From: an uncultured Chloroflexia bacterium
Lineage (GTDB): Bacteria; Chloroflexota; Anaerolineae; Anaerolineales; UBA11858
Direction: 5' to 3'
Length of the DNA stretch: 64,000 nt
Assembly: GCA_963751575.1 (NCBI GenBank)
Contig: CAVVUX010000002.1
Span: 367,984-431,983, forward strand
Under the pieces are notes generated by a model. It saw only the letters and a program-made list of their open reading frames with translations, was not told where the DNA came from and did no database searches. Positions 7,412 through 63,467 of the stretch are shown one piece after another. How positions within the stretch are numbered: position 1 is the stretch's first letter; each line of letters opens with the position of its first letter. Made by a program: the position numbers and the translations under genes.

Positions 7412-7486
7412 ATGGATGATTAAATTGTTATGATAGGAAGATGGTAATTGGTCCAAAAATTATTGTTAATGTCATAGGGTTATGAA

Positions 7487-8464: not shown

Positions 8465-8516
8465 TATAAATTCTGCAGCTGGTGATTTATTATTTAAAAC
8501 GCATTCTACAATCTAA

Positions 8517-10538
8517 ATGACTATTGTAATAATCCTGTTTTTTCTTCTTGTATTTATGTATCTGGCTTCATTTCAATTGTTGACCAGAAGAGAAAGTGCC
8601 GTCAAGGCGTTCCTGATCACGTTTGGCTGTACAGCGGTGATAACAGAATTCTTGTCCCTATTTGACCTGCTGACTGTCCAGGCAGTTTTCGCTTCCTGGT
8701 GTGGTCTGATTGGATTGCTGGGAATACTGTTCCTTCGAAAGCTGAAGGATGGTAATTGGAAATTTACCAGAGTCAGATCTATCTTTAATCTCGCTGGGTT
8801 GAAAGATCTCTCCCTCCTTGAGAAATTCATTATTCTATCTATTTTGAGCATCTTGATCTTGACTTTTCTGATTGCTATTTATTCACCTCCGAACAATTTT
8901 GACTCGATGACCTATCATATGGCTCGAGTTGTCCATTGGATTCAACAGAAAAGTGTAAGTTTTTATCCAACATCGATCCCAAGGCAAAATCATTCCATGC
9001 CTCTGGTTGAGTATTTGATACTTCATCTTCAACTGTTAAGTAAATCTGATCAGTATGCCAACCTGGTCCAGTGGGCAGGTTTTGTGATCTTGATATTGCT
9101 TGGATCAGAATTTACACGATTATTTCAGGTATCCAGGAAGGGGCAATTGCTGGCAGCTCTCTTCGCAGCCACCATACCGATGGCAATCCTGCAGAGCAGC
9201 AGTACCCAAAACGATCTGATTGTGAGCGTATTTTGTGTAAGTTTTGCTTATTATTTATCACGGATCCTACAATCACCGACGAGGGATGAGACTGTTTTTG
9301 GTGGTCTGGCCTTGGGTCTGGCACTTTTAACCAAGGGAACAGCTTATATATTTTGTGCAAGTATAGGTCTGGTCTATGGTTCAGTCAGTTTAATCAGGCA
9401 AACACAGGAAATCAGAATTAAACTCATCAAGAGTTATTTCCTGATGATTATGTTGGCACTGATATTGAATGTTGGTTTCTATCAAAGAAATTTCAACCTT
9501 TACGGGAATCCCCTTTCCACTGAAACTGAAAGGATAACAGTTGATAATCTAACACTTGGAGGATTATATTCTAATCTGGTCAGGAACTATTCCGCGCACC
9601 TGGCTGTTCCGATTCCAGCCCTAAATGAGAAACTCTCAAGTGAGGTGTCCACTTTACTCGGTGATCTTGCTGACCATCCGGCTTATACATTTTCTGGCAC
9701 ACAATTTAAGATCCACTTCTTAATTAATGATGATCATTCTGGCAACCCGATCCATTTATTATTGATCTCGCTCCTAATCTTGCTGATTCTAGCGAACAGG
9801 AAAAAAAGGATCAGGATATTGATACGCACATTGGAGCAGTAATTCTTTCTGTCCTGCTCTTTTCATTACTTTTAAAATGGCAGCCTTGGGGCACCCGGCT
9901 TCAATTGCCGATCTTTTTTCTGGGAGCTCCACTCTTTGGTATTTTCTATGACAAAACGCACCGCTCTAAATATCTACCCTATTTGCTTTGTTTGCTATTG
10001 ACGCTTTATTCACTGCCGTTCGTTTTCTTAAATGCTTCCAGACCGTTGATACCTTTATTTAGCCAGGAATCACCCCTGAGGTCAAATCGAATCAAACGGT
10101 TCTTTTCAGATCGACCTAACAGGTATACAGAATATTATGAGATCATCCGTCCGTTTTTAAGAGATATTGGTATTCTCCACACGGATCGGACAGATTCCTC
10201 TACTTTTCTGGGACCAAATGGGATTATTAGAAGACTATCTCCTAGTGATGGATGCGGTAAACGTGATTGAATGAAGATTATTATGGATTGTATCTGGGTG
10301 AAAATGATTGGGAGTATCCAATCTGGGTTTTGTCTGAGCAGACTGATCCCAGCAGGATTTCCAAAATTCATTCACGTCAGATGTTGGGGATTTATCTCCC
10401 GCACCTTGAACAGGCGATTCTGATTTTTATCCGGATTATGTCATATCGACCGAGCAATCAGGGTCTGATTGGTTAGATGCCAATCAGTATGAAATTATTG
10501 TAGATACAAAATCGATCGATCTTTATCAGAAGCGCTGA
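8517..10538 (+). pseudogene. polytopic GT-C-like membrane glycosyltransferase (PMT_2/GT39-like), frame-disrupted
   Basis: The frame-0 ORF 8517-9842 is multi-TM and contains NNFDSMTYHMARVVHW. The protein-like sequence continues in frame 2 from the A7 run 9801-9807 (..KDQDIDTHIGAVILSVLLFSLLLKWQPWGTRLQLPIFFLGAPL). It moves to frame 0 after T5 10154-10158 (LLFWDQMGLLEDYLLVMDAVNVIE), then to frame 1 (EDYYGLYLGENDWEYPIWVL). It returns to frame 0 after T5 10424-10428 (FYPDYVISTEQSGSDWLDANQYEIIVDTKSIDLYQKR, stop 10536-10538). Confidence 0.65.
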
Positions 10539-10570
10539 GTTAGGGACTCTTGAAGAATTAGTTATCGAGC

Positions 10571-10622
10571 TTGACACGATGTGAAAACACTCTATAATTC
10601 AATTATTGAATTTTAGAGTGTT
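10571..10622 (+). promoter_or_regulatory. near-consensus promoter with overlapping palindromic operator upstream of wzm
   Basis: TTGACA (10571-10576), 16-nt spacer, TATAAT (10593-10598). The inverted repeat AACACTCTATAATTCAA / TTGAATTTTAGAGTGTT (10586-10602 / 10606-10622) pairs at 16 of 17 positions around a 3-nt centre and includes the -10 hexamer. Confidence 0.7.
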
Positions 10623-10651
10623 CGTTTTCAAGGAACCACGATGATTTTCTG

Positions 10652-11521
10652 GTGTACAACAAAAAAATAGGTAATCTTATGGCACAGTCTGATCTAAAAA
10701 TACCCCAAATAATTATCGATGCCGATCAAGAGAACCGGAAAATTATCAATTGGCGGGAACTTTGGCAGTATAAGGACCTGTTCTTTTTTTTGGTCTGGCG
10801 GGATATTAAGACCAGGTATGCCCAATCGATCCTGGGAGTGGGTTGGGCTATTATCCAGCCGGTATTTTCAATGATTGTGTTTACTATTGTTTTTGGAAAT
10901 TTAGCAAAAGTCAATTCGGAGGGGGTACCCTATGCAATCTTCAGCTTTACAGCCTTGGTGCCCTGGACTTTTTTCTCTACATCGCTAACAAGTGCCAGTG
11001 GAAGCCTGATCAGCTCTCAACGCTTGCTTACCAAAGTCTATTTCCCAAGATTAGTGATCCCAATTGCACCTGTCCTGGGGAAGCTGGTCGATTTTGGGAT
11101 AGCTTTTCTGATACTGCTCGGTTTAATGGTTTGGTACAAAGTGACACCAACGATCTGGTCCTTACTTGTCCCGGTCTTTGTGCTCTTAATGGCGCTAACT
11201 GCTGCCGGAGTGGGAATGTGGCTGACAGCCCTGTCGATCCAATACAGGGATATTCGGTATGGCGCTGATTTTTTTGTTCAGTTGTTATTATACGCTTCGC
11301 CCGTTATCTATGCGACCAGTATCATTCCTGAAAAATTCCAAATCCTGTACGCTTTGAATCCTATGGTAGGAGTAATCGAAGGTTTTCGAGCTGCCCTGCT
11401 GGGTACTCGGTCTATGCCTTGGGAGTTTTTAGGAATTGGCACCTTAATGTCAATCGCATTTTTCCTCAGCGGGGCATTGTATTTTCGATCGATGGAACGC
11501 TATTTTGCTGATGTAGCCTGA
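10652..11521 (+). CDS. wzm: ABC-2 type polysaccharide/O-antigen export permease
   Basis: 289-aa multi-TM ORF with an ABC-2 permease layout, directly followed by an ABC ATPase gene. The alternative start ATG 10679 (MAQSDL) is plausible. Confidence 0.8.
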   Translation: MYNKKIGNLMAQSDLKIPQIIIDADQENRKIINWRELWQYKDLFFFLVWRDIKTRYAQSILGVGWAIIQPVFSMIVFTIVFGNLAKVNSEGVPYAIFSFTALVPWTFFSTSLTSASGSLISSQRLLTKVYFPRLVIPIAPVLGKLVDFGIAFLILLGLMVWYKVTPTIWSLLVPVFVLLMALTAAGVGMWLTALSIQYRDIRYGADFFVQLLLYASPVIYATSIIPEKFQILYALNPMVGVIEGFRAALLGTRSMPWEFLGIGTLMSIAFFLSGALYFRSMERYFADVA

Positions 11522-11546
11522 TTATCAAGTATACAGAAGAATTTTT

Positions 11547-12839
11547 ATGTCCAAAAACGTTATCAAAGTTGCCAATTTATCTAAACGGTACCGGATCGGA
11601 TCTGAAAAACTGTCCCGGGATACGCTGGCTGAAGTTTTCTCAGATTGGGTGACCAGACCAATCAAAAATTTACGCAGGTTGAGAAAGCTGACCCAATTCG
11701 ATCAAGTTGATCAGCAAGAAGATGATATTGTCTGGGCTCTTAAGGATGTCAATTTTGAAGTGAAGCCTGGAGAGGTAATTGGAGTTATTGGTAAAAATGG
11801 AGCCGGGAAGAGCACATTATTAAAGATCCTCAGCAGGATCACGTATCCGACGCAGGGCAGGGTAGAGCTGAACGGAAGGGTCTCAAGTTTGCTGGAAGTG
11901 GGAACCGGATTTCATCCAGAATTGACTGGTCGGGACAATGTTTATTTAAATGGAACGATCCTGGGGATGACCAGGACAGAGATCGATCGGAAATTTGATG
12001 AAATAGTCGAATTCTCAGGAATTAAAAAGTTCATCGACACACCGGTCAAGTTTTATTCAAGCGGGATGGGCGTCAGGCTGGCATTTTCAGTCGCAGCTCA
12101 CCTAGAGCCTGAAATATTATTAATCGATGAGGTTCTTTCCGTTGGTGATGCAGCCTTCCAAAAGAAATCCCTGGGTAAAATGGAAGAGGTATCCGAACAA
12201 GGTAGAACGGTGTTATTTGTCAGCCACAACATGGGTGCTGTCCGGTCACTTTGTACCCGGGGATTACTGCTAGAAGATGGTTGTCTGACCCTGGACGCAG
12301 ATGTGGACAACGTGATCAATACCTACTTATCAAGCAAAGATGTATCTTCATCCGGGAGCTTAGCCTGGACCGAGGCGGATGCTCCGCGAGATGCAGAATT
12401 AATCCTATTTGGGATACAGGTTGTATCTGAATCGGGAGATGTCAAGACTGCATATCAGATCGATGAGGGTTTTAAGATCAAAATTCATTACCAGATCCTG
12501 GAGGAAGTAAAAAACCTCCGCTTGTATCTCCGTTTTAAATCAACCATGAGCGAAACTATCTTTGCCACTTATGAGGATTCGCAGATCCAGGAAGGGTTTA
12601 ACCGCAAGCCTGGACATTACACAGCAGTCTGTAAGATTCCACCCAATATTCTTAATAATCTGACCTACCGGATCTATATTGGTTTTGATTCTCCGGGCAA
12701 TAAAGTGTTGATACCCGGGAAAGAATATCTGGAGGTTGATATTGTCGATACATCGGATGGCTATCGTTATGACAGGGATGCTTTTGATGGACCTGTCCGT
12801 CCGGTATTCGATTGGCATGTTGAAGAACGAGGCAGGTAA
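11547..12839 (+). CDS. wzt: polysaccharide/O-antigen export ABC ATPase with C-terminal carbohydrate-binding-type domain
   Basis: Walker A GKNGAGKST, signature-like YSSGMGVRLAF and Walker B LLIDEVLSVGD. About 175 extra C-terminal residues (after ~aa 255) are beta-rich, as in Wzt_C-type domains. Confidence 0.85.
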   Translation: MSKNVIKVANLSKRYRIGSEKLSRDTLAEVFSDWVTRPIKNLRRLRKLTQFDQVDQQEDDIVWALKDVNFEVKPGEVIGVIGKNGAGKSTLLKILSRITYPTQGRVELNGRVSSLLEVGTGFHPELTGRDNVYLNGTILGMTRTEIDRKFDEIVEFSGIKKFIDTPVKFYSSGMGVRLAFSVAAHLEPEILLIDEVLSVGDAAFQKKSLGKMEEVSEQGRTVLFVSHNMGAVRSLCTRGLLLEDGCLTLDADVDNVINTYLSSKDVSSSGSLAWTEADAPRDAELILFGIQVVSESGDVKTAYQIDEGFKIKIHYQILEEVKNLRLYLRFKSTMSETIFATYEDSQIQEGFNRKPGHYTAVCKIPPNILNNLTYRIYIGFDSPGNKVLIPGKEYLEVDIVDTSDGYRYDRDAFDGPVRPVFDWHVEERGR

Positions 12840-12860
12840 GGATCAGGGAAAGAATAAGCC

Positions 12861-13751
12861 ATGAAAATCATTTATTTTACTAAAGGTGTCAGGGGCAGCA
12901 AATGCCTGGAGCATATCCTGGAAAATGGTTTCCAGATTGGTGCGGTGATCGGAGTTATTCCCGAAATCGAGATCCAAAAACTGAGTGAACAGTTTGATTT
13001 TCCGGTTATATTCCTGGACAAGATCAATTCACCCGAATCCGTTGCCCGCCTAAAAGTATTAGAGGGGGATTTATTTGTCCTCTGTGGTTATAACAAAATC
13101 ATCAAAAACCAGGTAATCGGGATACCGCCACTGGGAACGATAAATTTGCATGGTGGAAAATTGCCAGAATACAGGGGTGCAGCTCCAATCAACTGGCAGA
13201 TCATCAACGGGGAAAAGACCGGAGGTTGCGCCATCATCTTCGTCGATGAGGGCATAGATACAGGGGCTATCATCACTCAGGAGATGTATCCTATCTCTGA
13301 TCAAGATACCCACGCCAGCATCCTTGCTAAAACTCTGAATATATTCCCCCGGTTGCTGGTTGATGTCCTGAGACAGGTTGAGGAAGGAACTGTGAATGCA
13401 GTTCCCCAAGACCCAAAAGCGGGTGGCTACTTTGGTCGGAGATATCCCAGTGACAGCCAGATCGATTGGGAAAATATGACAGATCTCCAAGTGCATAACC
13501 TTGTCCGCGGTATGCATGGGCCATACCCATCAGCTTATAGTTTCAGGGAAAGGCAAAAAATCGAAATTGAAAAAACGGAATTACTGATTGATTCTGTATC
13601 AGGATCACCAGGGACAGTAGCCCAGATCCGGGGCACTGGAGCGATTATCACAGCGTGTAATAGGGGATTATTGGTCAAGGATTTACGAGTCAATGGAGAA
13701 AAATTCGACCCCGCTGCAATCTTGAATGCAGGGGATAAGTTAATTTATTAG
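12861..13751 (+). CDS. formyltransferase (Fmt/ArnA-N-like; probable sugar N-formyltransferase)
   Basis: Formyl_trans_N signature INLHGGKLPEYRGAAPINWQIINGE and FVDEGIDTGAII, followed by a C-terminal Fmt-like subdomain. It lies next to DegT aminotransferase and SDR genes. Confidence 0.8.
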   Translation: MKIIYFTKGVRGSKCLEHILENGFQIGAVIGVIPEIEIQKLSEQFDFPVIFLDKINSPESVARLKVLEGDLFVLCGYNKIIKNQVIGIPPLGTINLHGGKLPEYRGAAPINWQIINGEKTGGCAIIFVDEGIDTGAIITQEMYPISDQDTHASILAKTLNIFPRLLVDVLRQVEEGTVNAVPQDPKAGGYFGRRYPSDSQIDWENMTDLQVHNLVRGMHGPYPSAYSFRERQKIEIEKTELLIDSVSGSPGTVAQIRGTGAIITACNRGLLVKDLRVNGEKFDPAAILNAGDKLIY

Positions 13752-13771
13752 CAAAACAGAGGATGGATTAG

Positions 13772-14749
13772 ATGAGTAAAGTGCTGATAACAGGTGGAGC
13801 AGGGTTTATTGGATCCTATGTGAGCAGAAAACTGCTCGATCAAGGCCATGAAGTAATTATCTATGATGCTTTTGTCCACTATATATCGCCCTTAAAGAGC
13901 GTTTTAAAGGATTTCACAGAACTGCGTTTCGAGGGGATAGCCGACCAGATCGATTTCCGGCGGGGCGACACACGGGATAAAGCGCATCTTCGCAGGATTA
14001 TTCTCGAAACCAAACCGGATCATATCCTTCATTTAGCAGCATTACCGATTGCAGATCTATCCAACAGGCACTCAGAAGAAGCCCTTGCCAGCATTCTTGA
14101 AGGAGCTGTGAATGTTCTGGAGGTACTTAGGGATGTAGATTTCGTGAATAGATTTGTCTATATATCATCATCTATGATTTATGGTGATTTTGAACAGGTT
14201 CCTGCTCCGGAGGATCATCCCAAGCGGCCGAAAGATATCTATGGTGGAACCAAATATGCTGGAGAAATACTGACCGAAACATACAGCAGGCGCTATAACA
14301 TCCCCTACAGCATCATCCGTCCCTCAGCAGTTTACGGCCCCTTCGACGTCAATCGCAGAGTAAGCCAGATCTTTGTGGAGAATGCCTTACTTGGAAAACC
14401 GATTACTCTTTATGGTGGCGGGCGCCAGGTACTGGATTTCACTTTTGTGGAAGACATAGCAGATGGGATCATCAAGGTTATGTTTTCTAAGAAAGGTTTG
14501 GGAGAAGCGTTTAATATTACTTACGGTTTGGGATACACTTTGCGGGAACTGGCTGATATCTTGCTAACTCATTTTGAGGATCTTGAAATAAAAATTGTTG
14601 AAGAAGAAGATGTATTCCGTCCCAAACGCGGTGCGCTGTCGATTGAAAAAGCAAAATCTCTGGTCGGATATGACCCCCAATATTCGCTTGATGCTGGCAT
14701 TCAGCGCTACCTGGATGTTTATCAAAACCTTGCGGTGTTCAAGAAATAA
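13772..14749 (+). CDS. NAD-dependent epimerase/dehydratase (extended SDR)
   Basis: GGAGFIGS Rossmann motif and YGGTKYAGE (YxxxK); 325 aa. Confidence 0.75.
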   Translation: MSKVLITGGAGFIGSYVSRKLLDQGHEVIIYDAFVHYISPLKSVLKDFTELRFEGIADQIDFRRGDTRDKAHLRRIILETKPDHILHLAALPIADLSNRHSEEALASILEGAVNVLEVLRDVDFVNRFVYISSSMIYGDFEQVPAPEDHPKRPKDIYGGTKYAGEILTETYSRRYNIPYSIIRPSAVYGPFDVNRRVSQIFVENALLGKPITLYGGGRQVLDFTFVEDIADGIIKVMFSKKGLGEAFNITYGLGYTLRELADILLTHFEDLEIKIVEEEDVFRPKRGALSIEKAKSLVGYDPQYSLDAGIQRYLDVYQNLAVFKK

Positions 14750-14774
14750 TATCAGTGAATCTCAGGAAAAATCT

Positions 14775-15905
14775 ATGCGAAAAATTCCCTTATGCATTCC
14801 CTATACAGGGCAGGAAGAGAAAGATGCTGTTTCTCAAGTCATCGATTCAGGTTGGTATGCCCACGGACCCAAGAACCATGAGTTTGAAGAAGGTTTTGCA
14901 AAATATCTTGGTGTAAAGTATGCCTTTTCTATGAATTCATGTACATCGGCTTTACACCTGGCAGTAGAAGGCCTGGGGATAACCGGAGAGGTGATCGTTC
15001 CCAGTTTTACTTTTGTTGCTTCAGCAAATGCAATCATAACTGGTGGCGCTCGTCCAGTTTTTGCAGACATTAATTACGACACATGCAATATTAGTACAGA
15101 ATCTATCGAAAGATTGATCAATCCTGACACCCAGGCAATTATGCCAGTTCATTACGGGGGACAGAGTGCCGATATGACGGCGATCATGCAGCTTGCAGAA
15201 AAATATAAATTACACGTTATTGAAGATTCGGCTGAGACAATTGGCGGTACTCATCATGGAAAAATGGCTGGTTCCTTTGGTGTGGGCTGTTTCTCGTTTT
15301 ATCCCACAAAGAACCTCACCACCGGCGAGGGGGGGATGCTGACCACAGATAACGACGATCTTGCCGGTAAGGTCAAAGCCCTCCTGGCACACGGTATTGA
15401 CAAATCAACCTATGAGCGGGAGGCTAAGGAAAAATCATGGTTCAGAGCTGCGAGTCTGATCGGCTATAACTTCAGGATGTCAAATATCCTGGCTGCTATC
15501 GGTGTTGAACAGCTTAAAAAACTTCCCGAGATGAATCGGAAGAGACAGGTTAATTCGGACACTCTGACCAAGGGATTAAGTTCGATTCCAGGCGTTCAGG
15601 TCCCGACTGAAAAACCAGAAAACAAGCATGTCTATCAGATGTATACCATTCGAGTGAACCCGGACATCAGGGATGATTTTGTGCGGCAGCTGAATTCCCG
15701 GGATATTGGGGCCTCGATCCATTTCTTCCCGCCCGTGCACGAAATGGTCCCGTACAGGGGACCAGAATTCAGGAAAGATGATTTGCCAGTGACAGAAAAG
15801 GTAATCAGAGAGATCGTTACCCTGCCTATGTATCCCCAGATGGAAGAAGAGGATATTTCTTATCTGGTTGATTCTGTCAAAGAAACACTTTTAAATCTGG
15901 GGTAA
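14775..15905 (+). CDS. DegT/DnrJ/EryC1/StrS-family sugar aminotransferase
   Basis: MRKIPLCIPYTGQEEKDAV is a typical N-terminus, and FSFYPTKNLTTGEGGM contains the PLP lysine. The track ORF begins at 14595, but that extension overlaps the previous gene, so ATG 14775 is preferred. Confidence 0.85.
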   Translation: MRKIPLCIPYTGQEEKDAVSQVIDSGWYAHGPKNHEFEEGFAKYLGVKYAFSMNSCTSALHLAVEGLGITGEVIVPSFTFVASANAIITGGARPVFADINYDTCNISTESIERLINPDTQAIMPVHYGGQSADMTAIMQLAEKYKLHVIEDSAETIGGTHHGKMAGSFGVGCFSFYPTKNLTTGEGGMLTTDNDDLAGKVKALLAHGIDKSTYEREAKEKSWFRAASLIGYNFRMSNILAAIGVEQLKKLPEMNRKRQVNSDTLTKGLSSIPGVQVPTEKPENKHVYQMYTIRVNPDIRDDFVRQLNSRDIGASIHFFPPVHEMVPYRGPEFRKDDLPVTEKVIREIVTLPMYPQMEEEDISYLVDSVKETLLNLG

Positions 15906-15907
15906 TT

Positions 15908-17206
15908 ATGCGGGTATTGCATGTTAATACAACCTCTCACTTGGGGGGGGCAGCTCGGGCGATGAGGAGATTCAGCCAGGCCCTGATCAAAAAGGGACAC
16001 CAGTCTCAGTTCCTTGTGGGACGAAGCAAATATCCTGAAGACCCTGACATTCACTTGATCTGGAATCAGGTTAGCGAATACCGCACTCTGCCTAACAGCC
16101 TGATCTCCAGGATTGGAAACCAGCTCGAAAAATATATAGGAATCAATTCCTGGTCCAACCGTCCCAATCTAAGATTACCTGATACCGACCTTTACAAGTG
16201 GTCAGATATCATCGATCTGCGCAATTTATTCGGTGGTTATTTCAATCTCTGGGTTTTGCCTCTATTAACAACTGGAAAACCAGTTGTTTGGAGGCTGCCA
16301 GATATGTGGGCAGTCACAGGACACTGCTCTTATCCTTATGATTGTGAACGCTGGAAATCAGGCTGTCATGATTGTCCATTATTGACAGCTCAAGGCCGGC
16401 TGAAGGTAGAACCTCCACCAACTCATTGGGATGGAACAAAGCGTGTTTGGCGCGCAAAAAAGGCCTTATATCAGGAGTCACAACTGCACATCATTGTCAC
16501 CACGGAATGGATGCGCGACCAGGTTTCCCAGAGCATACTTGGGAACGCAAGATCGATCAGCGTCATCTCGAATGGTGTGGATCTGGATGTTTATCAGCCC
16601 ATCAATAAAAAACAAGCCCGAGCAGATTTGGGACTTCCGCTTGATGAGAAGATCTTGCTTTGGTCAGCTCATAGAAAGGGAGCCTATCGGAAAGGTTTTC
16701 GGGTGGCAAATGAGGCAATGAAGATCCTACAGAATAATAATCCATTCGCACCGATGTTTATTACCATGGGCAGTCAGGAAAGATGGAACGAACCTGAGAT
16801 GCTGAGTAAATATAAACATTTTGGATTTGTCGAAGAACCTGAAAATCAAGCTTTAATTTATGCTGCTGCTGATGCGTTCTTATGCACCACGCTTGCTGAC
16901 GGGCAACCTCAAACGGCTTTGGAATCTATGGCTTGTGGAACCCCTGTGATCGCATTTGATCTTGGGCCAATGCCAGAAGAAGTTATTGACGGGAGAACAG
17001 GATTCATAGTTCAAACTCAGGATCCAGAGTCCCTTGTAGTTGGTATTGAAAGATTTCTAGATAATTTTGATAGGCTTCCGGTTCTGCAAACTAACTGCCG
17101 CCAGCAGGCTCTCGAGAAATATGATCTTGATCAGCAGGCAGAAAAATACATCAGCCTGTATTCTAGGATCTTGAAAGAGTACCCAAGCATAAATGGCCAA
17201 AGCTAA
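15908..17206 (+). CDS. glycosyltransferase, GT-B fold (GT4-like)
   Basis: MRVLHVNTTSHLGGAARA is a typical N-terminus. The C-terminal donor-binding block is ADGQPQTALESMACGTPVIAFDLGPMPEEV. Confidence 0.75.
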   Translation: MRVLHVNTTSHLGGAARAMRRFSQALIKKGHQSQFLVGRSKYPEDPDIHLIWNQVSEYRTLPNSLISRIGNQLEKYIGINSWSNRPNLRLPDTDLYKWSDIIDLRNLFGGYFNLWVLPLLTTGKPVVWRLPDMWAVTGHCSYPYDCERWKSGCHDCPLLTAQGRLKVEPPPTHWDGTKRVWRAKKALYQESQLHIIVTTEWMRDQVSQSILGNARSISVISNGVDLDVYQPINKKQARADLGLPLDEKILLWSAHRKGAYRKGFRVANEAMKILQNNNPFAPMFITMGSQERWNEPEMLSKYKHFGFVEEPENQALIYAAADAFLCTTLADGQPQTALESMACGTPVIAFDLGPMPEEVIDGRTGFIVQTQDPESLVVGIERFLDNFDRLPVLQTNCRQQALEKYDLDQQAEKYISLYSRILKEYPSINGQS

Positions 17207-17249
17207 ACCGGGGAAAAAACTTGATCTGCAATAGGATTCTAGTCCGAAG

Positions 17250-18329
17250 ATGAATATTCTTGTCACAGGTGGAGCAGGGTTTATTGGATCGAACTTTATC
17301 AGATATTCGCTGGCAAATCAATCTGCTAGCCAGCTTGTTAACCTCGATTGTTTGACTTATGCAGGAAATGTATCTAATCTGGCGGATATATCAGATCGGT
17401 ACACTTTCGTGGAGGGGGATATCTGTGATGAAGCCCTGGTGACAGATATATTGTACGAATACCGAATTGACCTGCTAGTCCATTTTGCTGCTGAGACCCA
17501 TGTCGATAAATCCAATAGGTATCCTGAGCTTTTTCACAAAACTAATTTTACAGGCACATTGACATTATTAGAGGCATTCCGGAAATATTCCCTCACCCTC
17601 GATAAAGCTGATCTGGCCCGGTTGCATTTTCACCACATTTCAACAGATGAGGTTTTTGGATCTTTAGCTCCTGAAGATGCCCCGTTTTCTGAATCCAGTC
17701 CCTTTAGACCAAACTCCATCTATGCGGCCACAAAAGCTGCCAGTGATGTTTTAGCAAGATCCTATTATCATGCTTTTGACCTTCCTGTCACGATCACAAA
17801 CTGTTCGAATAATTACGGTCCCTATCAATATCCAGAAAAACTACTTCCCTTGCTGATTATCAATGCCCAGGCAGGAAAATTATTACCAGTTTATGGTGAC
17901 GGCCTTCAAATACGAGATTGGATTTATGTCACAGATCACTGCCGAGCGATCTGGAAGGTAATCCAATTTGGAGCCGCCGGTGAGGTTTTCCTCGTTGGAG
18001 GTAATAATCAATTCACGAATCTGGAGATCGTTAACAATCTATGCGGTTTGATGGATAAAAAGCTTTCTGGTTCCAGCGATTCTCCGTATCGAAACCTTGT
18101 TCATCATATTGGTGATCGGCCTGGTCACGACCGACGTTATGCTGTGAGTACTGCTAAGATCTTGAAGGAATTAGGTTGGGAACCAGATATCACACTCGGA
18201 GAAGGGCTGGAACTGACCTTAAATTGGTACCTAGAGCATCCTGAATGGTTAGATCAGGTAATAAAACAACCGGGATATCAGCAGTGGATAAAAGAACACT
18301 ATTCCCAGAATGATAATTATCAGGCGTAA
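17250..18329 (+). CDS. rfbB: dTDP-glucose 4,6-dehydratase
   Basis: VTGGAGFIGSNF, DCLTYAGN, HFAAETHVD, HISTDEVFG and YAATKAASD are classical RmlB blocks. Confidence 0.85.
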   Translation: MNILVTGGAGFIGSNFIRYSLANQSASQLVNLDCLTYAGNVSNLADISDRYTFVEGDICDEALVTDILYEYRIDLLVHFAAETHVDKSNRYPELFHKTNFTGTLTLLEAFRKYSLTLDKADLARLHFHHISTDEVFGSLAPEDAPFSESSPFRPNSIYAATKAASDVLARSYYHAFDLPVTITNCSNNYGPYQYPEKLLPLLIINAQAGKLLPVYGDGLQIRDWIYVTDHCRAIWKVIQFGAAGEVFLVGGNNQFTNLEIVNNLCGLMDKKLSGSSDSPYRNLVHHIGDRPGHDRRYAVSTAKILKELGWEPDITLGEGLELTLNWYLEHPEWLDQVIKQPGYQQWIKEHYSQNDNYQA

Positions 18330-18370
18330 GGCAGACCCCCAGCAGGGATCAGCGGCAGAGTCAGCAGTTC

Positions 18371-18415
18371 TTGACCTGATACCAATCTAGTGTATAATTC
18401 AGTGACTGAATTATA
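18371..18415 (+). promoter_or_regulatory. promoter with overlapping perfect palindrome upstream of the MarR-like regulator
   Basis: TTGACC (18371-18376), 16-nt spacer, TATAAT (18393-18398). The perfect inverted repeat TATAATTCAGT-G-ACTGAATTATA (18393-18415) starts at the -10 hexamer. An RBS TAGGAG lies at 18421-18426. Confidence 0.7.
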
Positions 18416-18435
18416 GATTATAGGAGCGATTGTAA

Positions 18436-18924
18436 ATGGATCTTTCTCAGGAAGACAGGGAGCTCATTCTTTTAGAGAAAATTGCCAATGACCCTGATGT
18501 AAATCAGGCGACCCTGGCAGAACTTCTTGATGTAGCAGTGGGTACTGTCAACTGGCATATTAAGCGGTTGGTATCCAAAGGTTATGTCAAAGCTAAGAGA
18601 GCCCAACGAAAAAAACTTCGCTACATCATCACTCCGGAAGGTATTGCCCTCAGAGCAAAACTGACTGTTCAGTATATCGAAAACCAAATGCGTATGTATC
18701 GGGAGACCCGCCAGAATGTAAAAAAACTTCTGGCTGAGATCAGGGAAGATGGTTTTAATGAAGTGAGAATATCCGGGAAAAGTGAAATTGCAGATGTGTG
18801 CCAGCTTACCTGCCTCGAACAAGGATTTAATGTGGTTGAGAGGGGCGATATACCTGTTTTAGAAGTATCAGGTTATTCAGTTGTCTTGAAAAAAGAACCT
18901 GCCAGGGAAAACCAGGCAGCTTGA
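18436..18924 (+). CDS. winged-helix transcriptional regulator, MarR-like (EPS-locus-associated type)
   Basis: 162 aa with wHTH segment NQATLAELLDVAVGTVNWHIKRLVSKGYVKAKR. It is embedded in the polysaccharide locus. Confidence 0.65.
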   Translation: MDLSQEDRELILLEKIANDPDVNQATLAELLDVAVGTVNWHIKRLVSKGYVKAKRAQRKKLRYIITPEGIALRAKLTVQYIENQMRMYRETRQNVKKLLAEIREDGFNEVRISGKSEIADVCQLTCLEQGFNVVERGDIPVLEVSGYSVVLKKEPARENQAA

Positions 18925-18972
18925 TTATACAAAGATTAGTGCCAGAGTGTAAGTTGCAGAAAAGGAATTGAA

Positions 18973-20040
18973 ATGAAAAAAGCGATCATTACTGGAATTA
19001 CAGGGCAGGATGGATCATATCTGGCTGAGCTGCTGCTCCACAAGGGATATGAAGTGCATGGTGTGATTCGGAGAGCCTCAACCTTTAATACCAACAGGCT
19101 GGATCATCTTTATCGGGACCCTCACAATGGGGAGGAGGTTAAACTTTATCTTCATTATGGTGATCTCACGAGTTCAGATAGCCTTGAACGGGTGATCCAT
19201 GAAGTTCACCCGGATGAGGTTTACCATCTCGCTGCTCAAAGTCATGTTCGGGTTAGTTTTGACCTACCAGAGTATACCGGAGATGTTTCAGGTTTAGGTA
19301 CGATCAGGATCCTGGAAGCTATCCGCCGGTCAGGAATCAAGACCCGCTTCTATCAGGCTTCTACAAGTGAATTATTTGGAAGTGCTGACCCTCCTCAAAG
19401 CGAGCTGACACCATTTCAACCTCAGAGCCCGTACGCAGCGGCTAAATTATATGCGTTTTGGGTTACCAGGAATTACTCAGAGGGTTATGGTCTATTTGCC
19501 TGTAATGGAATTTTGTTTAACCACGAATCTCCCCGCAGGGGCGAGACCTTTGTTACCAGGAAAATAACCAGGGCAGTAGCAAGGATTAAGGCAGGAGTCC
19601 AGAAAAAACTTTACTTGGGAAACCTGGAGTCTAAACGAGATTGGGGCTATGCCCCGGAATATGTTGAAGCGATGTGGTCTATGCTCCAGCAAGAACAACC
19701 CTATGACATCGTGATCGGGACAGGAGAAGCACATACAGTTCGCGAATTTGTAGAGGAAGCGTTCAGTTATGTTGATCTCAATTACAAAGATTATGTAGAG
19801 ATCGATCCACGCTACTTCCGACCTACAGAAGTTGATTATCTGGAAGCTGATCCCGGCAAAGCAAAAAGAATCCTCAACTGGGATCCAAAAGTCCGGTACC
19901 ACGACCTGGTCAGGATCATGATGGATGCAGATCTTGAGTTGATTGGTTTGGACTCACCCGGCTTTGGAAAAAAGATTATAGATGAAAAATTTGATGTCTG
20001 GCATAAATGGGAAGACCAGGTAGTCAGCATGGGGAGATGA
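18973..20040 (+). CDS. gmd: GDP-mannose 4,6-dehydratase
   Basis: [34 protein letters not shown] and [17 protein letters not shown] are classical Gmd blocks. Confidence 0.9.
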
Positions 20041-21020
20041 AAATGATGAATCCAGATCAATTTCCTGATCCATTTGAATTTTGGTTGGATAAGACAGTTT
20101 GTGTCACCGGCGGTGATGGATTCCTGGGCAGCTTTGTCCAAAAAACCCTTCGGGAGCGAGGCGTTGAGAATATTTTTATTCCCCTGATCGATGATTACGA
20201 TCTTACTGAAACTGACAATATCCGGCGCATGTTATCAGACGCAAAACCAGATATTATCATTCACCTGGCTGCCTTAGCTGGCGGCATTGGTGCTAATCGA
20301 GCTCGTCCGGCGGAATTTTTCTACAAGAATCTGATGATGGGGGTTCCGCTGATGCATGAAGCCTGGAAATTTGGTGTTAGTAAATTTGTGGCTATTGGAA
20401 CAATCTGTGCTTATCCAAAATACACCCCGGTTCCCTTTAAAGAAGAAAACCTCTGGGAAGGATATCCCGAAGAAACAAACGCACCATATGGATTGGCGAA
20501 AAAAATGTTATTGGTTCAGGCTCAAGCCTATCGTGAACAATATGGCTTTAATGCAATCTACCTGCTTCCGGTAAATCTTTATGGCCCCCGGGATAATTTT
20601 AACCTTGAAACATCCCATGTCATCCCTGCCTTGATCAGAAAGATGGTCGATGCAGCAGATCAGGGGATTGATGAAGTTGTATTGTGGGGTGATGGATCCC
20701 CGACCCGGGAATTTTTCTATGCCGGAGATGCAGCCAGGGGCATCGCGATGGCTGCTGAAAGGTACGATGGCAGCGATCCAGTTAATCTTGGCGCAGGAAT
20801 GGAGATCAGCATCAAGGATCTGGCAGAATTAATTGCCCGCTCAGTTGGCTATACGGGTCGGATAGTGTGGGATTCAAGCAAACCTAATGGCCAACCAAGA
20901 AGAGCCCTTGATACCCAACGGGCCAAAGAATATTTTGGATTTGAATCAGAAATGCCGTTTGAGGATGGAATTGTGAAAACGATCGAATGGTACAGGGCAA
21001 ACAAAGATCAAATTGTATAG
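20037..21020 (+). CDS. fcl: GDP-L-fucose synthase (GDP-4-keto-6-deoxymannose 3,5-epimerase/4-reductase)
   Basis: [21 protein letters not shown] and [12 protein letters not shown] 20037 overlaps the gmd stop (ATGA). The track start at 20007 is an upstream extension. Confidence 0.85.
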
Positions 21021-21040
21021 AGCTGATCCGGAATTCCTGA

Positions 21041-21104
21041 TTATTCCACAGCTTATCCCCAATATCAGCCGAGTTATCACAAATTATCAACAGATTTATC
21101 CACA
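21041..21104 (+). repeat. array of five same-orientation TTATC-core 9-10-mers, including a perfect DnaA-box sequence
   Basis: TTATTCCACA 21041-21050, TTATCCCCA 21053-21061, TTATCACAA 21074-21082, TTATCAACA 21084-21092 and TTATCCACA 21096-21104. Spacings are about 12, 21, 10 and 12 nt. The array lies in the fcl / next-gene intergenic region. Confidence 0.6.
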
Positions 21105-21151
21105 GGATCTTGACCAGGAAGATAGCATCAAGGAACTAAAACTGATCAGTA

Positions 21152-22039
21152 ATGAGTAAAATTACGATTTTTTCAGCTCCGAAACCATTCTCGGATCCTC
21201 AGATCCGGATCATTCAAAGGAATGCTATTAAATCCTGGAAAATGCTGGGACCCGACGCTGATGTATTCCTGATTGGAGATGAGCTTGGGATCCAGGAAGA
21301 GGCAAGCCTTCTGGATGTAGGACACATCCCAAATGTAGAAGTCAATAGCCTGGGAACACCGTTGGTAAATTCAATTTTTTCTCTTGCCAGGCAGGCATCG
21401 AGATGTGAAATTCTCATTTATTTGAATGCTGATATCATCCTGCTTCCAGATACGCTTGAAATCATTCAGCAAATCAACCAGGGTAAAGAGGACTATCTGA
21501 TAGTAGGTCGGCGCTGGGATCTTGACCTATCCGCAGAGATTGTTTTTAACAAGAAATGGGCCGACGAGGTAAAGAATAGCGCTCTGATCCAAGGGAGAAT
21601 TCATGGACCGACTGCAATGGATTATTTTGTTTTCCCAAAACATTTATACCAAGATCTGCCGCCATTTGCAGTCGGGAGAGCTGGTTGGGATAACTGGATG
21701 ATCTATCACGGAATGCAGCAGCCCTGGCCGGTTATTGATGCTACACCAGTTTTAATGGTGATTCACCAGAATCATGATTACAGCCATCTCCCGGGTGGAA
21801 AACCCCATTTCGATCTTGACGAGTCAAATCAGAATGTGGCAATGGGGGGAGGATATACAAAAAGCTTTGATCTGTTGGATGTCCAGCACGAATTCAGGGG
21901 AGGGAAGATCAGGAGGATCCCGCTTTCTCTCCCGATCATATTAAGGAAATTAGAGCGTTTCATAAATCCGCGACTCATGGAAGGATGGCGGTGGGAGCTC
22001 ACTCGAAAATTACGGAAATTACGCAGAAAAATTAGTTGA
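21152..22039 (+). CDS. hypothetical protein, possible GT-A-like glycosyltransferase
   Basis: 295-aa ORF whose only recognisable feature is a DxD-like block (LNADIILLPD). The glycan-locus context is the main support. Confidence 0.4.
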   Translation: MSKITIFSAPKPFSDPQIRIIQRNAIKSWKMLGPDADVFLIGDELGIQEEASLLDVGHIPNVEVNSLGTPLVNSIFSLARQASRCEILIYLNADIILLPDTLEIIQQINQGKEDYLIVGRRWDLDLSAEIVFNKKWADEVKNSALIQGRIHGPTAMDYFVFPKHLYQDLPPFAVGRAGWDNWMIYHGMQQPWPVIDATPVLMVIHQNHDYSHLPGGKPHFDLDESNQNVAMGGGYTKSFDLLDVQHEFRGGKIRRIPLSLPIILRKLERFINPRLMEGWRWELTRKLRKLRRKIS

Positions 22040-22080
22040 ACAGCCAAGATCATTTGATCTTGCCTTAGCGAGAAAATATC

Positions 22081-23058
22081 ATGAGAGTTGGGGCTAATCC
22101 CGTAAAAAATAAACAGCCAGCGATCTCCCCACCGAAACCTGTAACGGTTGTGGTGATTTGCTATATACCTTATTTGAGCGGATATTTCCAGCACAGCCTG
22201 GATGTGTTAAAACTATCCCTTACCAGCATCCGGGAAAATACTGCTGATGAAGCATATGATTTGCTGGTATTTGACAATGGCAGTTGTGAACAGGTCAAGG
22301 ATTATCTGACAAAATTAAAAAATGAGAATAAGATCCAATACCTGATTCTATCAAGCACTAATGTTGGTATTCCGGGTGCCTGGAATATTTCATTTAATGC
22401 GGCTCCCGGCAAATATGTTGCATTTTCTGATTATGATATTTATTTTTATCCTGGTTGGCTGACCGAGCATTTGAGAATATTTGATAAATTCCCCCATGTT
22501 GGCATGGTTACCGGCACTCCTATTCGCCCTCCGTTAAAATATTCTTCAGCGACGCTGGAATGGGCTGAAGCACAATCGGAGCTGGAGATTAAACGCGGTG
22601 TTCTGCAATCGTGGGAGGATTTTCGGACCCATACCAAAAGCTTGGGAATGTCGGAGATTGAATCTGAAGAATCCTATCACCATGGTGAAGATATCCTGCT
22701 TAAATTGGGGGAAAATGAGGTATTTATTGGTGCAGGACACTTCCAATTTGTTGCTTTAAAGGAAGTATTAGAAAAAGTGACTCCATTTCCGAATAAGATC
22801 GCGATGGGAAATGAGCGATTATTGGACCAGAGGATCAATGAGTTGGGATTATTAAGACTGACATTAAATCGGAAATTTGTTCAGCATCTGGGAAATGTAC
22901 CCTCCCCGGAATTTTTAGAGCAAAATGATGGTTTATGGAGAAAATACTCAACGATAGGATCTGTTGAAAGGAAGGCAGGTTTTTGGAATATTCCCATCAT
23001 AAAAAAGGTTCTCTTAAAAATATATAATTCAATCTTTGAGATATATTTCCACCAGTAA
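22081..23058 (+). CDS. glycosyltransferase family 2-like
   Basis: VTVVVICYIPYLSG...LLVFDNGSCEQV and FSDYDIYF (DxD-like) are typical of a GT-A/GT2 N-terminal domain. Confidence 0.7.
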   Translation: MRVGANPVKNKQPAISPPKPVTVVVICYIPYLSGYFQHSLDVLKLSLTSIRENTADEAYDLLVFDNGSCEQVKDYLTKLKNENKIQYLILSSTNVGIPGAWNISFNAAPGKYVAFSDYDIYFYPGWLTEHLRIFDKFPHVGMVTGTPIRPPLKYSSATLEWAEAQSELEIKRGVLQSWEDFRTHTKSLGMSEIESEESYHHGEDILLKLGENEVFIGAGHFQFVALKEVLEKVTPFPNKIAMGNERLLDQRINELGLLRLTLNRKFVQHLGNVPSPEFLEQNDGLWRKYSTIGSVERKAGFWNIPIIKKVLLKIYNSIFEIYFHQ

Positions 23059-23081
23059 TCAAAATCAATAAGGCATTAAGA

Positions 23082-24510
23082 ATGGAAAAGCGAATATTTT
23101 TAGTAGCAAACCATGGACTTTCGATCATATATTTTTTACAAAGTGATGTGCTAGCTACTCTAGTTAAATCAGGAATTAAGGTTGTTATTTTCACCGACGA
23201 TGAAGTGATTCCGAAGATCCAAAAAATGATCGAGTATCCGAATGTTGCTGTGGAGAGCATGCGCTTAACAGAGGTAGATAAATTTTGGAAAACGAAATAT
23301 CCATCTCTCCAGTATTGGATCGATTTTCTCCGCCGGGCTGGTGCATCAAAAAAAATAAATCTCGAAGCGGTTCAATCATATATTGAACAGGTTGAATATG
23401 AAGCCCATACCAAGCGAAAATTGATTTTTCCCCTGATCAAAGTCTTAGTATTGATCCTTCGAAATTCACGTTTGGCCAGGAAAATGCTGGTTAGGGCCCA
23501 GCAATTTTTTACTCCCGAGATTTATTCTGACCTATTTGATAAATACAAACCAGAGTTGGTTGTCTCAATTACACCGGGCTGGCGGCAAGATCGATATCTG
23601 CTCAGGGAAGCGAAAAAACGAGGTGTGATAACAAGCTCCATCATTCTTGGATGGGACAATTCCAGCAGCTACAGCCTGCCAGGTGCAGATGTGGACTGGG
23701 TCTCTTGCTGGTCGGAGATCCAAAAAGAGGAGTTGGTCAAAGGATCCGATTGGAATCCTGACAGGGTAAATATTGGCGGGATCCCGTCCTATGATGGTTA
23801 TTTTAATGAGATCTGGAAAATGCCCCGGGGTGATTATTATAAATCGCATAATCTCGATCCGGACCGAAAATTAATTTCTTACGCCTGTAGTTTTATAACA
23901 TTTTCCCCAAATATTCAAAATATTAAAGCGTTGGAAAGTATTATCAGCTCTGACAGCTTGATCGAGCCTTGCCAATTATTGATCAGATTGCATCCGAACC
24001 ATTTCCTGGAAGATCCCCGGTTTAAGGATGAAATGATAATGATCAATGAGTTAGCCCAGAATAATAACCATGTCCATCTGGTTGAACCGGTCGCCCTTGG
24101 CGGAGACCTGGGATACTATTCAGGGGAGGATATGCCGGAAAAATCCTCCATGATGGCCCATTCTGATGTGATGGTGACCGTTTACTCTACCATGGCACTA
24201 GAGGCAACTATCCATGAAACTCCTGTGATCAGCCTCTGTATTGATTCGGAGTCTGGCTGGCCAGAATAATTTTTCCCTGCAATTGTCGCAAATTGGAGGG
24301 TGGCCAACCCATGAAAGGTTCATTGCTTCAGGAGCAGGAAGAGAAGCAAGCAACCGGGAAGAATTAGTGGAGGCTCTTAATTATTATTTGAAAGAACCAG
24401 ACCAAGATCATGAGCTCAGGCGGGCGTTTATCACTCGGGAATGTACCTATATAGATGGCAGCGCAGGAAAACACACTGGCGAATTTTTAGCATCCCTGGT
24501 TGTGGAATAA
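23082..24510 (+). pseudogene. GT-B-fold protein (glycosyltransferase or sugar-nucleotide epimerase-like), one frame disruption
   Basis: ORF 23082-24269 ends ..ISLCIDSESGWPE*. It continues in the +1 frame from ~24260 (..NNFSLQLSQIGGWPTHERFIASGAGREASNREELVEALNYYLK..). The GT-B-type donor block is SDVMVTVYSTMALEATIHETPVISL. Confidence 0.55.
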
Positions 24511-24556
24511 CGAATTACCAAACTTAGGTTAAGTTTTTGGAATAGTACAGGTGACC

Positions 24557-25552
24557 ATGAAATTTCTTATAGCTGGTTTTGGGTCCATTGGAAGAAGACA
24601 CTTCAGGAATTTACTTCACCTGGGTGAAGAGGATATTCTGTTCTACAGTACCAATCAGAGTACGATTGACAAAGATGAGATCGCTGGATACATCATTGAA
24701 CCAAGCTTGGATCAAGCCCTGGCCCATAAACCAGATGCGGTGATTGTTTCCAATCCTACTTCACTCCACCTGGATGTTGCTATTCCAGCAGCCAGGGCGG
24801 GCTGCCATCTATTAATAGAAAAGCCCCTTTCCCACGATCTGGGGCGGATTGATGAATTAGCAATGATAGTTGACCAAACAGGCAAGAATGTCCTAGTAGG
24901 ATTCCAGTTCAGATATCATCCAGGCTTACAGGAAATTAGAAAGCTAATCAGTGATGGAGTGATAGGTAAACCGTTATCTGTCCGGGCTCATTGGGGTGAA
25001 TACCTGCCCAATTGGCATCCCTGGGAAGATTACCAGACTGGTTATAGCGCTAGAGCAGATCTCGGAGGGGGGGTGCTGCTAACTCTCTGCCATCCACTAG
25101 ACTATCTACGGTGGCTGTTTGGGGAGATCAACGAAGTCCAGGGCTTTTTGGGCTGCAGTGGAGTCTTGGGTTTAACAGATGTTGAGGATACCGCTGAAAT
25201 AAACCTGAAGTTTGCAAACGACATGCTTGGCAGTGTCCACCTCGATTACAATCAACGCCCGCCTGCTCATAGATTGGAAATAATCGCTTCTGAAGGAACT
25301 GTACATTGGAATGGCATAAATGGCGAACTGTCAGTATTCCAGGCTTCAACAGGCAAATGGAAAGACTATCCCCTTCCTTTGGATTTTGACAGAAATGACT
25401 TATTCTTAGCCGAAATGGCTCACTTTTTGGAAATCACAAAGACAGATCAGATCCCAAGATGTTCTCTTGCAGATGGGATTACTGTCCAGCAAATTATTCA
25501 ATCTGTGAATAAATCCCACAGAGAGGGTGCCGTAGTAAGTATAACAATTTAA
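24557..25552 (+). CDS. Gfo/Idh/MocA-family NAD(P)-dependent oxidoreductase
   Basis: MKFLIAGFGSIGRRHFRNL is the Rossmann N-terminus, and LLIEKPLS matches the EKP motif of this family. Confidence 0.75.
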   Translation: MKFLIAGFGSIGRRHFRNLLHLGEEDILFYSTNQSTIDKDEIAGYIIEPSLDQALAHKPDAVIVSNPTSLHLDVAIPAARAGCHLLIEKPLSHDLGRIDELAMIVDQTGKNVLVGFQFRYHPGLQEIRKLISDGVIGKPLSVRAHWGEYLPNWHPWEDYQTGYSARADLGGGVLLTLCHPLDYLRWLFGEINEVQGFLGCSGVLGLTDVEDTAEINLKFANDMLGSVHLDYNQRPPAHRLEIIASEGTVHWNGINGELSVFQASTGKWKDYPLPLDFDRNDLFLAEMAHFLEITKTDQIPRCSLADGITVQQIIQSVNKSHREGAVVSITI

Positions 25553-25666
25553 CAACACAGGCGAATAGATTCCATTTTGGAAATCTATCAGGATCAGGAA
25601 CAAATTTGGAGAGATAGTTTTGATGCCCGATCGTTAGTTCAGTAAAGATTATTGAGGACTGAAACC

Positions 25667-63458: not shown

Positions 63459-63467
63459 CTCGTAATC

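Follow-up and report, generated by a model that had tools for sequence, protein, structure and literature searches.

The 64,000-nucleotide (nt) stretch analysed here (the window), part of contig CAVVUX010000002.1 from an uncultured Chloroflexia bacterium of the order Anaerolineales, encodes a 162-residue winged helix-turn-helix (wHTH) protein in a surface-glycan locus. A perfect palindrome lies on the promoter of the gene for this regulator (reg). Judged from sequence, the palindrome is probably the operator of the adjacent protein, which would act as a dimeric autorepressor of an operon comprising reg, gmd, and fcl and, in some genomes, wzm and wzt. The operator is fused to a promoter in the same way across the order, the combination is linked exclusively to the regulator and to glycan genes, and the protein has a MarR-like wHTH fold. 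The circuit appears to follow the conventional principle of an autorepressor; the family, the box, and the regulon are undescribed in the searched literature.

The regulator gene and the elements on which the proposal rests are the following.

18371 to 18376, + strand: -35 hexamer TTGACC of the regulator promoter, read from the sequence.
18393 to 18398, + strand: -10 hexamer TATAAT, which doubles as the outer part of the left operator arm, read from the sequence and returned by the sigma-70 promoter scan.
18393 to 18415, unstranded: operator palindrome TATAATTCAGT-G-ACTGAATTATA, read from the sequence and returned by an inverted-repeat search.
18405, + strand: predicted transcription start, an A lying 7 nt past the -10 hexamer and within the operator, placed from promoter geometry.
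18422 to 18426, + strand: Shine-Dalgarno sequence AGGAG, 9 nt 5′ of the ATG, read from the sequence.
18436 to 18924, + strand: gene for the 162-residue wHTH regulator, the putative autorepressor (Pfam, NCBIfam, PDB search, AlphaFold, and Foldseek).

The original prediction had described a promoter of the form TTGACC-16 nt-TATAAT and a perfect palindrome with 11-bp arms starting at its -10 hexamer, and both are present, at 18371-18398 and 18393-18415, respectively. The two hexamers are separated by a 16-nt spacer. The 11-nt arms, TATAATTCAGT at 18393-18403 and ACTGAATTATA at 18405-18415, are perfectly complementary and flank a single G at 18404, such that the first base of the palindrome is the first base of the -10 hexamer (18393). 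The core of the operator consists of AATTCA (18396-18401), a 5-nt spacer, and TGAATT (18407-18412), while the repeat search extends the arms to 16 nt with 88% complementarity (18388-18420).

A sigma-70 scan of positions 10200-25600 for TTGACA/TATAAT-like hexamers spaced 16-18 nt apart returns only one 12/12 and one 11/12 match. These are the predicted promoters of wzm (10571-10598) and of the regulator (18371-18398), respectively. The palindromes on both promoters are among the 13 short-range inverted repeats of the window. When up to three mismatches are allowed, TATAATTCA-N5-TGAATTATA matches three times in the 64 kb against 0.07 expected, and none of 100 shuffled sequences reaches three matches. 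No Rfam match was found, and the predicted transcripts lack significant structure.

Relatives of the regulator are numerous: 6550 have an E value below 1e-5. Identity exceeds 76% for the closest of them, and the small number with names carry the labels Anaerolineales or Chloroflexota. With each species of the GTDB species set represented by a single genome, a scan yields 575 relatives, of which the best 80 loci (58-85% protein identity), drawn from Anaerolineales and other Chloroflexota, were used for comparison and amount to 1.25 Mb together with the window. The exact core AATTCA-N5-TGAATT occurs 88 times in the 80 loci and twice in the window, against ~0.07 copies expected in the 1.25 Mb. 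Each of these 90 copies is preceded by TAT, giving TATAAT, and all lie on the strand of the regulator. Conservation of the box at orthologous loci had been set beforehand as a check on the original prediction, and the box passes it: the core is fused to TATAAT 5′ of the regulator operon in 77 of the 80 loci. The three exceptions are L006, whose variant has a 6-nt spacer; L018, whose site has one mismatch; and L067, whose contig breaks off within the preceding gene. In L031, the core stands 5′ of gmd, which directly precedes the regulator gene such that the two form one unit.

Alignment of 89 sites gives the consensus cTTGACc-(16 nt)-GT-TATAATTCA-R-N-N-R-Y-TGAATT-W-T-R-G/A-A. The information content is 2 bits over TATAATTCA and over TGAATT and falls almost to zero in the central spacer positions and in the flanks, which is the pattern expected of a dimer site. 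TATAAT is invariant (89/89), and a -35 element with at least five of six matches to TTGACA at exactly 16-nt spacing accompanies it at 67 of the 89 sites, compared with 1.5% of random positions. The column 7 nt past the -10 hexamer is a purine in 96% of the sites, which fits the expected transcription start.

The genes that carry the box are those of glycan synthesis and export. The regulator is followed by fcl in 72 of the 80 loci, as part of a conserved reg-(gmd)-fcl synteny. Close relatives have the same layout as the window. In more distant relatives, the order is reg-SDR-fcl-wzm-wzt-(capsule-synthesis-like)-(methyltransferase), with the regulator first and its stop codon overlapping the next start. 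Extra copies of the box are found 5′ of wzm (the window, L002, and L008), of a gmd paralog (L021, L022, L023, L028, and L054), of a GtrB-like GT2 gene (L027, L040, and L042), of a gene for an LPG_synthase_TM-like (flippase-like) membrane protein (L046), and, with one mismatch, of a PMT_2 GT-C gene (L059). None of the extra copies in the 80 loci and the window is 5′ of a non-glycan gene. The distant reg-SDR-fcl-wzm-wzt operons and the restriction of extra boxes to glycan genes support the earlier proposal that export and GDP-sugar genes are controlled together.

In the regulator, a wHTH domain (residues 5-65) leads via a long helix (67-104) into a small C-terminal α/β domain (109-152). Its scores lie at the threshold of the Pfam models MarR (PF01047; 24.5 against a cutoff of 24.6) and MarR_2 (PF12802; 27.0 against 27.0), and it passes the generic wHTH models HTH_24 (41.4 against 21.9) and HTH_27 (23.3 against 22.2). 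The AlphaFold2 model used here was built from a 36-sequence alignment and has a pLDDT of 89.4; it supersedes an earlier model from 16 close homologs (pLDDT 70), in which the wHTH was poorly modelled and the best Foldseek E value was 0.5. The model has helices at residues 5-18, 24-31, and 35-47, a wing at 51-65 (strands 51-55 and 61-65), a 38-residue helix at 67-104, and a β-α-β-β-β domain at 109-152. The top 30 Foldseek matches in the PDB are all MarR-family chains (E values 1.5e-4 to 1e-3, probability 1.0, ~105 aligned columns). They include DNA complexes of ZitR, FabT, and MepR and cover the wHTH and the helix only, and the wHTH, recognition helix, and β-hairpin wing of the MarR family are superposable on the model. 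No PDB fold match was found for the C-terminal domain by Foldseek.

The earlier description of the protein as MarR-like thus stands for the wHTH fold but not for the canonical MarR architecture, as the N-terminal dimerisation helix is missing and the C-terminal domain is unmatched. The most fitting description of the regulator is that of an uncharacterised, MarR-like subfamily distinguished by a C-terminal domain of its own. The sequence GxSxxA occurs in this domain at the β-α turn where longer relatives have GxGxxA, which hints at a reduced nucleotide-binding-like domain; as a candidate function, it may serve as a sensor or a dimerisation module. A CxxxC pair lies on one helix of the domain, with Cys126 invariant and Cys122 94% conserved among the 80 orthologs.

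In the proposed mechanism, a dimer of the regulator would set its two recognition helices (VAVGTVNWH-KRL) in successive major grooves, on AATTCA and TGAATT. The centres of these half-sites are 11 bp apart and on one face of the DNA helix. The segment VAVGTVNWH is essentially invariant across the 80 orthologs, matching the invariance of the operator. The operator would span the -10 hexamer, the predicted start at 18405, and the bases to about +11, so that a bound dimer would exclude RNA polymerase from a near-consensus promoter. The operon reg-gmd-fcl probably extends into the downstream glycosyltransferase genes. Since the regulator gene is the first of its own operon, the protein would repress itself and GDP-6-deoxyhexose synthesis together, that is, by negative autoregulation, and the second operator copy would place the Wzm/Wzt exporter operon under the same control. 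A signal, probably sensed via the conserved C-terminal α/β domain, would release the repressor. Because negative autoregulation is homeostatic, the levels of the regulator and the pathway would be buffered and rapidly derepressed. The word "switch" in the original prediction is therefore an overstatement, as a buffered, derepressible circuit is not bistable.

Several points weigh against autorepression by the adjacent protein. The identity of the binder, repression as the outcome, the position of the start, and the existence and nature of an inducer are what we infer from the DNA and protein sequences. Operator and recognition helix are both invariant, so that no covariation ties the protein specifically to the site; protein-site covariation was sought in relatives of ~40% and ~34% identity, and none was obtained. 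To the right of the palindrome, at +18 to +21, T-R-G/A-A is conserved without symmetry, and thus something beyond symmetric dimer contact shapes the site. This tail could be initial transcribed sequence, a ribosome-binding site, or a divergent -10 element. Where wzm and the regulator are apart, in the window and six close relatives, only 3-4 of these seven genomes have a separate wzm box; the box is absent in the close relatives L004, L016, and L020 and degenerate in L017, such that control of the exporter via a separate box is lineage-variable. The searched literature, moreover, gave no paper on the family or the box.

Upstream of the regulator, divergent genes on the opposite strand start 59-113 nt from the box in many distant loci, namely L034, L049, L063, L066, L068, L072, L074, L075, and L077. 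Their product is a fusion of ~480 residues that joins a methyltransferase to a GT2 glycosyltransferase. Read on the reverse strand of these loci, the right arm is TAAAAT or CAAAAT and may be a divergent -10 element. One operator could control both directions, which might explain the T-R-G/A-A tail.

Further matches to the box in the window are located as follows.

10571 to 10598, + strand: wzm promoter, TTGACA, 16-nt spacer, and TATAAT, a 12/12 consensus match (sequence and sigma-70 scan).
10586 to 10622, unstranded: second operator copy, on the wzm promoter, with 18-nt arms and one mismatch.
23023 to 23045, unstranded: weak third box TATAATTCAATCTTTGAGATATA, with a perfect left arm and two mismatches in the right arm.

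The wzm promoter had been said to share the architecture of the regulator promoter, and the same layout is indeed found at 10571-10622. Its hexamers are TTGACA (10571-10576) and TATAAT (10593-10598), and its operator core consists of AATTCA (10596-10601) and TGAATT (10607-10612). The boxes 5′ of wzm in L002 and L008 are homologous to this one. In L008, an apparent insertion of ~1.1 kb (553-1684) lies between the box-bearing promoter and wzm.

The palindromes at the wzm promoters far exceed the conserved operator in length: the arms are 18 nt with one mismatch in the window and 22 nt and perfect in L002 (3146-3192). Their outer arms differ in sequence between the window and L002, retain complementarity, and are followed by a U-rich tail. 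As RNA, they fold with -16.6 kcal/mol (z -5.4) in the window and -32.2 kcal/mol (z -8.7) in L002. The long wzm palindrome may be a terminator for upstream read-through fused to a promoter and operator; alternatively, it may reflect a larger protein footprint.

The third match, reported earlier at 23021-23047 as sharing 19 of 27 bases with the wzm box, is real. Its right arm is TGAGAT instead of TGAATT, no -35 element accompanies it, and it lies inside the 3′ end of a GT2 open reading frame (ORF; 22081-23058). The site is kept only in L004, a near-identical relative with 85-90% identity in the flanking proteins, and has been lost from L020. Thus, the match itself exists, but its proposed control of the block of genes starting at 23082 has no backing beyond L004, and it may be a weak site at most. 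A fourth site at 25493-25513 (TTATTCA-ATCTG-TGAATAA, with perfect 7-nt arms) was rejected as being within the range of chance, with four matches against 1.1 expected and 3 of 100 shuffles reaching four. This sequence carries one core change per arm relative to the box, has no TATAAT, and is located inside the 3′ end of a GFO/IDH/MocA ORF. A repeated or mobile promoter cassette is likewise ruled out, since the copies have only the functional positions in common.

More remote relatives extend the history of the site. In a clade of ~40% identity, represented by six metagenome loci (L081-L086), TTGACA is followed after 17 nt by GAGAAT fused to AATTCA-N5-TGAATG, and the operator core therefore predates the split of these clades. 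The recognition helix is nearly unchanged in this clade, as is the core, and no covariation is offered. The single long locus has the order reg-wzm-...-wzt. The right arm, TGAATG, holds the start codon of the regulator 7-11 nt past the -10 element (e.g., L082, 5960-6010), implying a leaderless or nearly leaderless mRNA. GAGAAT is preceded by an extended-10-like TG in five of the six loci. In L082, an apparent insertion of ~2.6 kb (7475-10063) separates wzm from wzt, and its ORFs of at least 120 residues are only on the minus strand. Relatives of ~34% identity from Vicinamibacterales (P0203 group; loci L087 and L088) have the recognition helix TNIYLKRL. In both loci, the regulator gene begins 10 nt past a CMP-sugar synthetase gene; at this distance, it would have neither a promoter nor a box of its own, and these relatives are thus unable to test the box.

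The box could instead be the operator of another, trans-encoded transcription factor, with the adjacent wHTH gene merely one regulated member of the glycan regulon. This is unlikely, although the invariance of both protein and site, and hence the missing covariation, is compatible with it, and inspection covered only ~20 kb per genome. A box in front of the regulator in 77 of 80 genomes, and again in the clade of ~40% identity, is what autoregulation usually leaves behind. Comparisons that used the window proteins as queries, and the full ORF lists of L022, L058, and L082, brought up no other DNA-binding gene as a conserved neighbour. In addition, a palindrome with half-sites one helical turn apart suits a wHTH dimer.

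The protein might also bind the box and activate transcription, or act dually, e.g., by remodelling the promoter. Activation of capsule genes is known for some MarR/SlyA-type proteins, the 16-nt spacer falls one base short of the optimum, and sequence does not reveal the direction of regulation. A protein bound over the -10 hexamer, the predicted start, and the bases to ~+11 would, however, clash with RNA polymerase, and promoters that already match the consensus at 11 or 12 of 12 positions should have no need of activation. Such a role is quite improbable.

There is only a slim chance that the box is not a protein operator but a composite promoter and leader element (i.e., a special -10, discriminator, or initial-transcribed sequence) or an RNA hairpin or terminator acting in read-through transcripts. 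The asymmetric T-R-G/A-A tail conserved after the right arm would be accounted for in this way, as would the start codon within the right arm in the clade of ~40% identity. The wzm palindromes, with arms of 18-22 nt, compensatory differences between genomes, a U-rich tail, and z scores of -5.4 and -8.7, argue in the same direction. On the other hand, transcription from the predicted start would begin downstream of the left arm, so that the promoter's own transcript would have no hairpin; such transcripts give z scores of +0.87 and -0.04, with no significant structure. Folding at the regulator's own site is weak (z -2.1), and a U tract is missing there. Conservation falls on the two symmetric hexamers, and pairing places no constraint on three of the five spacer positions (+7 to +9). 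Unrelated coding sequences follow the same element at distances that vary, and no Rfam match was found for it. Action as RNA is thus a weak proposal at the regulator's own site and not a negligible one at the wzm promoters, where the site may combine a terminator with a promoter-operator.

Chance palindromes in AT-rich promoter DNA are refuted: TATAAT is partly self-complementary and AT-rich intergenic DNA does give short palindromes, but three matches in the window compare with 0.07 expected, and 90 exact cores, all in the same position and orientation, compare with ~0.07 in 1.25 Mb.

The glycan genes that the proposed autorepression would concern include the following.

10652 to 12839, + strand: wzm (ABC-2 permease, likely true start ATG at 10679) and wzt (ABC ATPase), assigned with Pfam.
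18973 to 20040, + strand: gmd (GDP-mannose 4,6-dehydratase), TIGR01472, 513.7 bits against a cutoff of 415.
20007 to 21020, + strand: fcl-like gene for a GDP-L-fucose synthase homolog, overlapping the end of gmd, NF047922, 289.5 bits against a cutoff of 500.

The gap between the regulator gene and gmd is 48 nt, and the spacing of gmd is conserved at ~+525-550 in close relatives. Terminator prediction gives none in the gap from the regulator to gmd and none from the preceding gene to the regulator promoter. As the Fcl score is below the equivalog cutoff, the final GDP-6-deoxyhexose is uncertain. The fcl-like gene is followed by genes for a 295-residue protein without a family match, a GT2, and a 395-residue glycosyltransferase-like protein. 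All genes at 7.5-25.5 kb are on the + strand. Nearly all genes from 3352 to 62858 (~59 kb) share this orientation, and the only non-overlapping minus-strand ORFs of at least 150 residues in the window are 2281-3273 and 62904-63992.

Among the exporter genes, ABC2_membrane (66.1 bits) and ABC_tran (80.2 bits) both pass, and Wzt_C is weak (19.3 against a cutoff of 30.4). The wzm operon continues after wzm and wzt with genes for an ArnA-like formyltransferase, an SDR, a DegT-type aminotransferase, a GT4, and a dTDP-glucose 4,6-dehydratase (431.9 bits against a cutoff of 365). The formyltransferase, SDR, aminotransferase (DegT/PseC-like), and dehydratase genes occupy 12861-15905 and 17250-18329. 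They suggest that the exported glycan contains an N-formylated amino-deoxy sugar in addition to the GDP-6-deoxyhexose of gmd and fcl.

Anaerolineales are abundant in sludge, sediments, and the subsurface, are mostly uncultured, and have a poorly understood cell envelope. In the searched literature, no transcription factor-operator pair was found for Anaerolineales and no glycan regulon for Chloroflexota. The present analysis supplies a testable regulon, namely a 23-bp operator on a consensus promoter and a candidate repressor in hundreds of species-level genomes. Its target set covers GDP-6-deoxyhexose synthesis, Wzm/Wzt export, and polyprenol-phosphate and GT-C glycosyltransferases, and it suggests that one conserved surface glycopolymer is a core feature of Anaerolineales and is regulated. 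The compact repressor-promoter pair is also a possible genetic tool for Chloroflexota. The value of the finding is in its reach and conservation rather than in a new principle.

A broader proposal, put forward tentatively, is that the regulator is the order-wide master sensor for a core envelope glycopolymer of Anaerolineales and that its C-terminal domain, a cut-down version of a Rossmann-like GxGxxA domain, binds a nucleotide-sugar or lipid-linked intermediate or senses redox. If this were true, GDP-sugar synthesis and Wzm/Wzt export would be subject to end-product or stress feedback from one operator-promoter module, which has been unchanged since before the clades of 40% identity split.

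The closest functional parallel is with the MarR-family autorepressors (MarR/marO, MepR, HcaR, ZitR, FabT, and SlyA), which have dimer-type palindromic sites overlapping the core promoter and are encoded beside, and regulate, their own operons. A ligand or oxidation relieves the DNA binding of MarR-family dimers. The palindrome on the -10 hexamer described here is consistent with such an own-promoter operator. The wHTH and the following helix are common to both, with a sequence match to 5eri at E 1.7e-5. Here, however, the wHTH begins as early as residue 5, and the part of 5eri that matches residues 9-102 is 57-156; nothing comes before the HTH, so that the N-terminal MarR dimerisation helix is missing. 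The MarR dimerisation arrangement of an N-terminal α1 with C-terminal α5/α6 is thus not found in the regulator, and a β-α-β-β-β domain of ~45 residues replaces the MarR C-terminal helix.

Rex-type repressors also combine an N-terminal wHTH with a C-terminal nucleotide-binding α/β domain and bind palindromes at core promoters. The regulator resembles them in the order of its domains, although its C-terminal domain has only ~45 residues and GxSxxA, with GxGxxA confined to its longer relatives. No sequence match to Rex was found in the PDB search and no fold match by Foldseek; the likeness is one of architecture and no evidence of homology.

The best NCBIfam match is TIGR04176, "MarR family EPS-associated transcriptional regulator", whose whole 105-position model aligns to residues 5-103 (E 1.9e-19). 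At 69.7 bits, below the curated cutoff of 88, the regulator is not a member, and TIGR04176 proteins differ in having no C-terminal domain. In the searched literature, TIGR04176 is an annotation label only, with no operator or function described. Both are small wHTH proteins encoded within polysaccharide loci, and the exopolysaccharide or surface-glycan setting typical of TIGR04176 is found here in wzm/wzt, gmd, fcl, GT2, GT4, aminotransferase, and formyltransferase genes and is kept in the 80 loci.

The P0203 group of Vicinamibacterales has the wHTH, the long helix, and the first β-α-β of the C-terminal domain in common with the regulator, together with the invariant residues V110, G114, E117, A119, E128, and G130. 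Its proteins differ in being longer (195-230 residues) and in having a fuller Rossmann-like C-terminal domain with GxGxxA. They are likewise encoded within sugar-nucleotide and glycosyltransferase clusters, which contain NeuB, CTP_transf_3, SDRs, PMT_2, and GT4; Epimerase_2 and a methyltransferase are also present in the clusters of L087 and L088. These glycan clusters tie the wHTH clade to surface-glycan loci well beyond Chloroflexota.

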